From Shigella phage sb3, in sequence record PQ666541: a DNA stretch of 64,000 bases, one strand, 5' to 3'. The notes under the pieces were generated by a model. The model did no database searches, had not been told where the DNA came from, and saw only the letters and a list, made by a program, of their open reading frames with translations. Within the stretch, counting starts at the first letter, position 1; the number at the start of each line of letters is the position of its first letter. Shown here in pieces: positions 22,786 to 24,329 of the stretch. A program made the position numbers and the translations under genes.

Positions 22786-22813
22786 TTTGTGTTCCTCCGT
22801 AGTTGATAGTTGT

Positions 22814-22843
22814 ATAGTACCACAGAGGAACAGTCTTGTAAAC
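22814..22843 (-). promoter_or_regulatory. Early promoter / PeSL-like module
   Basis: Minus strand GTTTACA-N17-TACTAT; contains the 22-mer agttgatagttgtatagtacca also at 24240 and 40001. Confidence 0.55.
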
Positions 22844-22845
22844 CA

Positions 22846-23160
22846 CTAAAAGAAACTTCTTTCACAATTTTTTCCACTGAACCATGCACTTACCGCTTTC
22901 TTGGTCTCAGGAGCAGTGTTATCCATAAACCATTCAAAGGCAGCCTTTTTATGATTCTGGAGGGCTTCTCGGGCTTTAATCTGCTCACGGTCTATTAACA
23001 CTAACATATGAGCCTTTCTTGTCACCATGGGCTTCTTATGATTTTTTGAATACTCCCAGTCATTTGTCCATCGCATTGTCGTTGCGAACTGAAATACTGC
23101 TTCTTTAATTTTAGTTTCGTAAATTTCACGAGCCTTTGAGTATAACATCACTACCTCCAT
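22846..23160 (-). CDS. Hypothetical protein
   Basis: 104-aa ORF. Confidence 0.4.
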   Translation of the reverse strand: MEVVMLYSKAREIYETKIKEAVFQFATTMRWTNDWEYSKNHKKPMVTRKAHMLVLIDREQIKAREALQNHKKAAFEWFMDNTAPETKKAVSAWFSGKNCERSFF

Positions 23161-23249
23161 TCACCAGTTTAATTCTAGTCATCTTTTTAATGGCAGTCCA
23201 TATAATCTATTTCTGAACTGCCTTTTTGTCATAGAAGTCCTCTTATGAA

Positions 23250-24230
23250 TTATTTCAGAAGAGTAACCTCAGCAATTTCTTCCCAACCGTTTTTGTCGGT
23301 CATAATAAAGTCAGCAAGATAAAGAGCAGTACGCAGTGAAACATTGCGTAAACGATTAACATTAACTTTCATCCATGATAATGCTTTATAAGTTTCTTCA
23401 TCAGAAAGACCGCGCTTTTGCATCATGTCAGTTGAAAGAATAACATCTTCAACTCTGACCATAATTTCTTCATTAGTGTGAACACCTAAATCCAAATAAA
23501 CCGAGCGGGACACTAATGCTTGTAAATGTGGAGCAAGTTTAGTACCACGGTCTAATTCGCGGTCAATGTCAACGTTTGTGATAAAAACAATCGTTCCTTT
23601 AAATTCAAATTCACGGTCAATGCCTTTTTCTTCTAAGTAAGAAGACGCAGTGCTCCAGCAGACTTTACGGGTCTCTCCGGTGTCCAGAGCAGCTTTTAGA
23701 AGATTAAGAATGTCCATATCAGAGAAAACATCCACATCATCAATCAAAAGGACAGAATTCTCTTCACGATTATTCCAAAGCTGCTCATAAAGACCAATAC
23801 CAGAGATTTTACCATTAATGCTTTTATATTCAATGTATCCAATATCATTTGCTTTATTTAAAGCTTTATCTAAAGAATACGTTTTACCAATACCTGCTGC
23901 GCCAGAGATAATTAATGAACGAATATTTCCGTTAATAATACCATTCGTCATCATTCCCATAACATTAAATCTTTTATTAATGCGGGTTTTCATATCTTCA
24001 TATGATTCTTTAACTTCTTCAACTTTTACACCATCATATGAAATATCTGATTTGTAAACCCAAACACCGCGACGTTTACCGTCAATTTCAACAAAAACTT
24101 TACCATCTCCTTGTGCATCTACCGGAGCATTATCTGGGAACCATTCGCCTAAGAGCTCAAAAGTTCCAGAGATTTCTTTACCGAAGTAGATACCCTTATT
24201 GATAGTTACAGTTTTCATTTTATTCCCCAA
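23250..24230 (-). CDS. P-loop NTPase (AAA-like)
   Basis: 326 aa, Walker A GAAGIGKTY and Walker B VLLIDDVD. Confidence 0.55.
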   Translation of the reverse strand: MGNKMKTVTINKGIYFGKEISGTFELLGEWFPDNAPVDAQGDGKVFVEIDGKRRGVWVYKSDISYDGVKVEEVKESYEDMKTRINKRFNVMGMMTNGIINGNIRSLIISGAAGIGKTYSLDKALNKANDIGYIEYKSINGKISGIGLYEQLWNNREENSVLLIDDVDVFSDMDILNLLKAALDTGETRKVCWSTASSYLEEKGIDREFEFKGTIVFITNVDIDRELDRGTKLAPHLQALVSRSVYLDLGVHTNEEIMVRVEDVILSTDMMQKRGLSDEETYKALSWMKVNVNRLRNVSLRTALYLADFIMTDKNGWEEIAEVTLLK

Positions 24231-24252
24231 ATCCGTATCAGTTGATAGTTGT

Positions 24253-24282
24253 ATAGTACCATAAAGCTTTATGCTTGTAAAC
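24253..24282 (-). promoter_or_regulatory. Early promoter / PeSL-like module
   Basis: Minus strand GTTTACA-N17-TACTAT; identical 22-mer repeat. Confidence 0.55.
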
Positions 24283-24299
24283 CGTTTTGTGAAAAAATT

Positions 24300-24329
24300 T
24301 TGAAATAAAAAAGGGAGCCCGAAGGCTCC
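24300..24329 (-). terminator. Rho-independent terminator
   Basis: GGGAGCC-UUCG-GGCUCCC hairpin followed on the minus strand by UUUUUUAUUU. Confidence 0.65.

Follow-up and report, generated by a model that had tools for sequence, protein, structure and literature searches.

Identical predicted early-promoter cores, a conserved nrdC.9-nrdC.10 unit and an adjacent cassette slot in Shigella phage sb3

The window analyzed here (64,000 nucleotides [nt] of one strand of Shigella phage sb3, sequence record PQ666541) contains three exact copies of the 22-mer AGTTGATAGTTGTATAGTACCA (22801-22822, 24240-24261, and 40001-40022), two of which flank the genes nrdC.9 and nrdC.10, the latter encoding a P-loop ATPase. 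It is very probable that the three copies are paralogous cores of early promoters, that nrdC.9-nrdC.10 is a conserved unit, and that the module upstream of nrdC.10, which is of the promoter early stem-loop (PeSL) type, is a site of crossovers that exchange small gene cassettes. As a discovery the result is minor, but it corrects the view of an earlier note on this DNA as to which genes move: these are small open reading frames (ORFs) upstream of nrdC.10 and not the ATPase pair.

The phage belongs to Tequatrovirus. A 3.4-kb query around the locus matched 749 phage records with IME339 as the best match (98% identity), and T4 is ~96% identical at the locus with the same genes and the same empty allele of the slot described below. 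In T4, too, the exact 22-mer is found three times, upstream of nrdC.8, of nrdC.10, and of e.8, and copies 1, 2, and 3 were therefore assigned to the promoters of nrdC.8, nrdC.10-nrdC.9, and e.8, respectively. Gene names were assigned by comparison with the T4 RefSeq record, and all genes around nrdC.8-nrdC.11 lie on the minus strand. The features of the locus are as follows:

22258-22785, minus strand: nrdC.8 orthologue, 175 amino acids (aa), PHROG 2274 (function unknown), predicted to be driven by copy 1
22801-22822, minus strand: 22-mer copy 1, an exact match that is identical in T4, with the extended -10 motif (TGn), the -10 hexamer TACTAT (22819-22814), and the first transcribed bases of the putative nrdC.8 promoter
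22814-22843, minus strand: putative nrdC.8 early promoter GTTTACA-N17-TACTAT, predicted start near 22807, A/T-rich upstream part overlapping the 3' end of nrdC.9
22846-23148, minus strand: nrdC.9 orthologue, 100 aa, DUF7203 (E = 3e-15), PHROG 1931
23250-24218, minus strand: nrdC.10 orthologue, 322-aa AAA+ ATPase, PHROG 1250 (unknown function)
24240-24261, minus strand: 22-mer copy 2, with TGn, the -10 hexamer (24258-24253), and the first transcribed bases of the putative nrdC.10 promoter
24253-24311, minus strand: putative nrdC.10 early promoter GTTTACA-N17-TACTAT, palindromic spacer ATAAAGCTTTAT, UP-like stretch ATTTCAAAATTTTTTCACAAAACG, predicted start near 24246
24312-24331, minus strand: predicted intrinsic terminator of the nrdC.11 unit, AGGGAGCC-UUCG-GGCUCCCU followed by U6 (-17.7 kcal/mol, z = -3.4)
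24333-25345, minus strand: nrdC.11 orthologue, RlaP-type nucleotidyltransferase, split by a frameshift
40001-40022, minus strand: 22-mer copy 3, inside the putative e.8 early promoter (40014-40043; e.8 orthologue, 39706-39969)

On the minus strand the 22-mer reads TGG-TACTAT-ACAACTATCAACT, which comprises the extended -10 motif TGn, a -10 hexamer of the TAnnnT form of T4-type early promoters, and approximately seven of the first transcribed bases. A promoter scan also marks the TG ahead of the -10 hexamer. A (G)TTTACA element precedes every copy at a 17-nt spacer, giving GTTTACA-N17-TACTAT at three out of three copies in agreement with the -35 element GTTTAC(A/T) and the 17 (±1) nt spacer of this promoter type, and the -35/-10 spacers of the three promoters differ outside the 22-mer. 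The A/T-rich UP element (-40 to -60) is also present; copies 2 and 3 share TGTAAAC-NGTTTTGTGAAAAAATTTT (repeat family D4) and the equivalent stretch of copy 1 is A/T-rich but consists of nrdC.9 coding sequence. T4 early promoters have been called "uber" promoters (UP/-35/TGn/-10) and have further consensus positions (PMC2988021), and the promoter-terminator modules of the T4/PST pair follow the consensus TTTACW-N17-TAYWAT (PMC4122927). At the three sites the window is identical in sequence to the T4 early promoters of nrdC.8, nrdC.10, and e.8, with the same architecture, the same genes behind them, and no substantive difference. Phage Lutter records carry promoter features, annotated as predictions, at the places equivalent to the nrdC.8 and nrdC.10 promoters. 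The 22-mers are thus the predicted cores of three sigma-70-dependent T4-type early promoters. No fourth copy is present in the window even when up to three mismatches are allowed, and 100 dinucleotide-preserving shuffles produced no copy at all, which rules out a chance origin of the repeat.

The earlier note had reported the three identical copies and had read each as the -10/start region of a minus-strand early promoter, and both statements hold at all copies. Copies 1 and 2 do flank two ORFs as it described, but the ORF ends given there (23160 and 24230) are not the likely starts. For nrdC.9 the likely start is the ATG at 23148, which has GGAGG 6 nt upstream and gives a protein of the same length as T4 nrdC.9, and for nrdC.10 it is the ATG at 24218 (322 aa rather than 326 aa) and not the TTG at 24230. 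The note had also likened the repeats to promoter-early stem-loop modules; copy 2 is the only copy at which a stem-loop terminator adjoins the promoter. No terminator-like site was found beside copy 1, and at copy 3 such a site lies ~140 nt upstream. A terminator equivalent to 24312-24331 is annotated in the R5505 and Lutter records.

As the earlier note had stated, PeSL modules are published recombination joints of T4-type phages. The published cases include the T4/PST pair, and genes between tandem PeSLs can be excised or integrated (PMC2839356; PMC4122927). The copy 2 region resembles the PeSLs of Arbiol et al. (2010) and Comeau et al. (2014) in its series of stem-loop terminator, A/T-rich stretch, strong early promoter, Shine-Dalgarno sequence, and start codon, in its fit to the TTTACW-N17-TAYWAT consensus, and in lying where small, functionally uncharacterized ORFs are replaced or affected by indels. 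Its stem-loops comprise both the upstream terminator and the palindromic spacer. Degraded half-modules beside the cassettes and stem-loops that overlap the -10 or the spacer in neighboring modules are further points of likeness. The locus differs from the published PeSLs in that the interval bracketed by the identical copies is conserved and in that copy 1 overlaps coding sequence and, taken alone, lacks the stem-loop of a PeSL. Judged by comparison with related genomes, the module at 24240-24331 upstream of nrdC.10 is a PeSL-type element and a breakpoint for the gain and loss of cassettes in relatives.

Other predicted early promoters on the minus strand of the window (~43911-44004, 43581-43674, and 39646-39739) contain inverted repeats, for example TGATGAGGTA…TACTAT…TACCTCATCA. 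The arms lie in the -35/-10 spacer and just past the -10, so that the -10 would sit in a hairpin loop. Such repeats were dropped as an unusual feature since they represent an already described PeSL subclass (PMC2839356).

Junctions read base by base place the cassette variation in the short interval that separates the terminator of nrdC.11 from the start codon of nrdC.10. The following six slot alleles, with junctions inside the copy 2 module, were identified:

Empty (T4, IME339, and this window): terminator, UP element, and promoter, then nrdC.10
BW-1 and T2: ADP-ribosyltransferase (ART)-like ORF (PHROG 832) with its own promoter, flanked by the direct repeats CCC-T6-ATTTCAAAA-TTTTTTCACAAA
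Sso113: 49-aa ORF and DUF4031 ORF, preceded by the normal promoter and leader of nrdC.10 and by its first three codons (ATGAAAACT)
LF73P3: ART-like and DUF4031 cassettes in tandem, junctions as in BW-1 and Sso113
R5505: 66-aa ORF (PHROG 6200), left junction (marked by a slash) within the 22-mer (…TACTATACAACTATCAA/AACAAATG; …CTATCAA/AACAAATG), degraded promoter on the right
GEP001: no cassette, 37-bp deletion of the UP element and the -35, with the -10 and the leader retained

Past the Sso113 cassette there is a second promoter, and GGAGAATAAAATGAAAACT is present a second time. The promoter of R5505 is chimeric and joins an nrdC.10-type -35/-10 to the leader of another promoter, and the GEP001 allele is predicted to be a natural promoter-down allele. 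The slot is empty in about half of an evenly spaced sample of 38 Tequatrovirus records, and searches specific to each cassette gave 155 records for the DUF4031 pair, 122 for the 66-aa ORF, and 44 for the ART-like ORF. The ART-like gene (161 aa) is intact in LF73P3 and in STML-198 (locus positions 2500-2985). In BW-1 (locus positions 3844-4328) it is split by the loss of one A from an A-run.

All three cassettes (DUF4031 pair, ART-like ORF, and 66-aa ORF) have boundaries in promoter modules. The DUF4031 pair and the ART-like ORF recur outside Tequatrovirus with a DNA identity of 90-93%, compared with 68-76% for their flanks. The ART-like cassettes of LF73P3 and Gelderlandvirus STML-198 share 93% DNA identity compared with 75% for the adjacent nrdC.10 and 68% for nrdC.11. 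The tract of high identity starts at the promoter of the cassette itself and reaches as far as a T4-type GATACTATACAACTATCAACTGATACGGATT segment, which represents the 22-mer with two mismatches together with the nrdC.10-type leader; in STML-198 this segment precedes a different ORF and has lost the -35. The DUF4031 cassette is ~90% identical in Karamvirus KMB20 versus ~70% for nrdC.10, and the identity falls at the promoter on each side. In JK45 the 66-aa cassette occupies a second locus, 13 kb away, between unrelated genes, and the 358-bp tract of homology extends from an UP element to the degraded downstream promoter, with promoter modules at both ends. Dhakavirus WG01 contains a single slot ORF between two promoter copies that are identical over 39 nt. 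The locus is accordingly a clear multi-allele example with transfer across genera and across loci. On this evidence we lean modestly towards a broader proposal, in which the gap between the nrdC.11 terminator and the nrdC.10 start would be a cross-genus landing pad of the Tevenvirinae, where promoter-bounded single-gene cassettes are exchanged together with their promoter cores between genera and loci, and where this traffic homogenizes the neighboring cores. In that case the trace left in the exact 22-mer would be that of ongoing gene conversion and not of promoter selection alone.

The identity of the cores within a genome was compared across genera. The nrdC.8 promoter and the next promoter upstream share an exact tract of 22 nt in the T4-like phages, 20 nt in JK45, and 20 nt in P896, the GTGTACA-type promoters of WG01, JK45, and P896, which fall outside the TTTAC[AT] pattern, having been located by reading the sequence. 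The 20-nt shared core of P896 is unrelated in sequence to the T4-like core, and orthologous promoters of the T4-like phages and P896 have no more than 6 nt in common. This pattern agrees with homogenization within each genome (concerted evolution) through recombination in addition to selection for strong promoters. Selection for a very strong promoter, with an extended -10 and an optimal initial transcribed sequence, might instead be the sole cause of the identity, with no role for recombination and with the nearby indels unrelated to it. Such an explanation would agree with the additional consensus positions of the T4 "uber" promoters (PMC2988021) and with the motif CTATCAA, which is found again 3' of the -10 in several further early promoters, both in the window and in other genera. 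It is nevertheless improbable given that allele junctions fall inside the modules, that R5505 carries a chimeric promoter, that cassettes 90-93% identical in other genera or present at another locus end in promoter modules, and that a single optimum does not predict the entirely different core at the equivalent promoters of the P896 lineage.

Concerted evolution of paralogous cores and exchange at the copy 2 module can be combined into a single mechanism. The host RNA polymerase would start at the three promoters immediately after infection, as their sequences suggest. Transcription from the nrdC.10 promoter would cover nrdC.10 and nrdC.9 and continue into nrdC.8, to whose expression nrdC.8's own promoter would add, and the terminator upstream of the nrdC.10 promoter would insulate the nrdC.10 unit from nrdC.11. 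Crossovers between co-infecting or related phages would occur by homologous recombination at short homologies within the modules (the terminator/UP stretch, the -10/leader core, and the Shine-Dalgarno sequence with the first codons), so that the slot would gain, lose, and exchange small accessory cassettes. Alongside selection for strong promoters, this recombination is probably also what maintains identical cores in a given genome.

The earlier note had suggested that the genes between copies 1 and 2 are a swapped-in module and that their content might vary among relatives, and it had named a collinear and conserved interval without alternative cassettes as the observation that would speak against this suggestion. 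Such an interval is essentially what was found. All close relatives, T4 among them, are collinear over the stretch from copy 1 to copy 2 (~500 Tequatrovirus genomes); the 3.4-kb nrdC.7-nrdC.11 query was covered to at least 80% in one place in 472 records, and 493 records matched at 95-99% identity. An artificial query for a deletion between copies 1 and 2 (nrdC.8 start, 22-mer, upstream part of the nrdC.10 promoter, and nrdC.11 end) was never matched in one piece, and the junction was present in none of 520 records. The nrdC.10 protein shows at least 95% identity in 502 records and is detectable in 1312 phage records within the Straboviridae and beyond, and its identity tracks taxonomy: ~79% in mogra/JS98-like coliphages, ~75% in phages of Klebsiella, Enterobacter, and Serratia, 66% in those of Acinetobacter, and 45% in the schizo-T4 phages of Vibrio, with homologues also in some jumbo phages and one Roseobacter siphovirus. 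Homologues of nrdC.9 with the motif WFSGxNxExSF are located 3' of nrdC.10 in JK45 and WG01 and are also found in P896. As this distribution indicates, nrdC.9-nrdC.10 is a conserved, vertically inherited early transcription unit and not a swapped-in cassette. Since the bracketed pair is conserved in every close relative, the swapped genes are those just outside it, upstream of nrdC.10, where the module that the note took for a recombination site does act as a breakpoint among the genomes compared.

That nrdC.9-nrdC.10 is itself an accessory cassette, exchangeable through its two identical promoter modules, would suit the exact 22-nt direct repeats 1439 bp apart, the published excision and integration between tandem PeSLs (PMC2839356; PMC4122927), and the absence of nrdC.10 from Gaprivervirus P896, but it is very unlikely, and largely refuted for Tequatrovirus, in view of the missing deletion junction, the collinear interval, the divergence of nrdC.10 by genus, the retention of nrdC.9 in P896, and a copy 1 that has no stem-loop and takes its upstream half from nrdC.9 coding sequence.

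The content between the two copies is invariant apart from one insertion, a 239-aa homing endonuclease-like gene (PHROG 314) between nrdC.10 and nrdC.9 that is carried in 67 records (T6, RB51, RB14, and 64 others) and is absent from the window. It resembles the free-standing homing endonucleases of T-even phages (seg/mob type), whose mobility proceeds through DNA cleavage and repair and not through promoter repeats. In the window the gap between nrdC.10 and nrdC.9 (23161-23249) harbors a GGCAGT…ACTGCC stem-loop that has a T-run behind it on the plus strand only. A T4 genome-reduction paper describes spontaneous large deletions of nrdC.1-6 and nrdC.11-mobD.3, which lie on either side of nrdC.7-10.

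Several points weigh against the overall reading of homogenized promoter cores, a conserved gene pair, and an exchange site upstream of it. Gaprivervirus P896 has a 68-aa ORF in place of nrdC.10 and keeps nrdC.9 and nrdC.8, so that at deeper divergence the unit is not immutable and its two genes do not act as a single block. The cores could stay identical through selection on promoter function alone, and concerted evolution is clearly visible only between the T4-like phages and P896; the orthologous promoters of JK45 and WG01 share the core, and these two phages therefore cannot separate recombination from selection. Sequence and published accounts of T4 early promoters are the basis for the start sites and the promoter class, recombination at the modules is deduced from a comparison of extant genomes, and the allele frequencies reflect cassette-specific searches and a 60-row sample rather than a full breakpoint survey. 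The PeSL mechanism is itself already published and the repeats are T4's own early promoters, so there is little new in either.

The P-loop motifs that the earlier note had recognized in nrdC.10 are present: Walker A, SGAAGIGKT, comprises residues 105-113 (G106-A-A-G109-I-G111-K112-T113) and Walker B, VLLIDDVD, residues 156-163 (V156-LLI-D160-D161), and the G, K, and D positions of both are invariant in 33 homologues. Also invariant in the 33-sequence alignment are N215 at the sensor-1 position, S237-R238-S239, and R291/R296, with an arginine in the lid helix. An AlphaFold model (pLDDT 88, pTM 0.70) predicts an AAA+ core and a helical lid behind an N-terminal beta-rich domain (residues 1-61), in agreement with the alpha/beta core and lid of the AAA+ fold. 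The profile search that the note had proposed yielded no curated family: the Pfam scores stay below the gathering thresholds (AAA_14, 23.1 vs 27; AAA_22, 21.2 vs 27; AAA, 16.6 vs 21.2), NCBIfam and PADLOC gave no match, and PDB sequence searches with the single protein and with the 33-sequence profile returned nothing at E < 0.1. In the literature the name nrdC.10 appears in one paper only, with a weak AAA match (PMC1524935).

The Walker motifs and the sensor-1 asparagine of nrdC.10 are like those of AAA+ proteins of the initiator, clamp-loader, and MoxR type (Cdc6/ORC, DnaA/Hda, RFC, RuvB, and NorQ/CbbQ). No one of these clades stands out, however, and the N-terminal 60-residue beta domain has no assigned counterpart among them. 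Clamp loaders have an SRC arginine finger where nrdC.10 has the invariant S-R-S (237-239), and nothing specific supports the label "clamp loader" that nrdC.10 bears in some records. A weak best guess, drawn only from this motif pattern and from the initiator and clamp-loader matches, is that nrdC.10 might be an oligomeric AAA+ remodeler of nucleic acid or of a nucleoprotein complex, active early in infection. The protein is flagged here as a very widespread phage AAA+ ATPase (>1300 genomes).

The most conserved part of nrdC.9, compared with the loci of three relatives, is the C-terminal WFSGxNxExSF (22846-22880, minus strand). The DNA that encodes this end may be under dual constraint, since the same bases form the A/T-rich upstream element of the putative nrdC.8 promoter (…GAAAGAAGTTTCTTTTAGTGGTTTACA).

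Compared with T4 and IME339, nrdC.11 has lost one base near 24657/24658 (GGCGAACG to GGCGACG). The gene is thereby broken into an N-terminal ORF of 245 aa (24608-25345) and a leftover ORF of 81 aa (24333-24578), representing either a real pseudogene or a sequencing error. Upstream of nrdC.11 (25342-25803, minus strand) the window encodes an RB32ORF096c-like 153-aa membrane protein at the position of a mobD homing endonuclease gene in T4.

Directly upstream of the e.8 promoter copy, two ORFs on the minus strand (40210-40773 and 40899-41372) begin with MKTYAEFLTEA and MKSYAQFLNEA and are separated by near-identical terminator repeats (40855-40894 and 41414-41453, family D12). Both starts resemble the N-terminal capsid-targeting sequence of T4 internal proteins, and the region looks like the polymorphic internal-protein locus.

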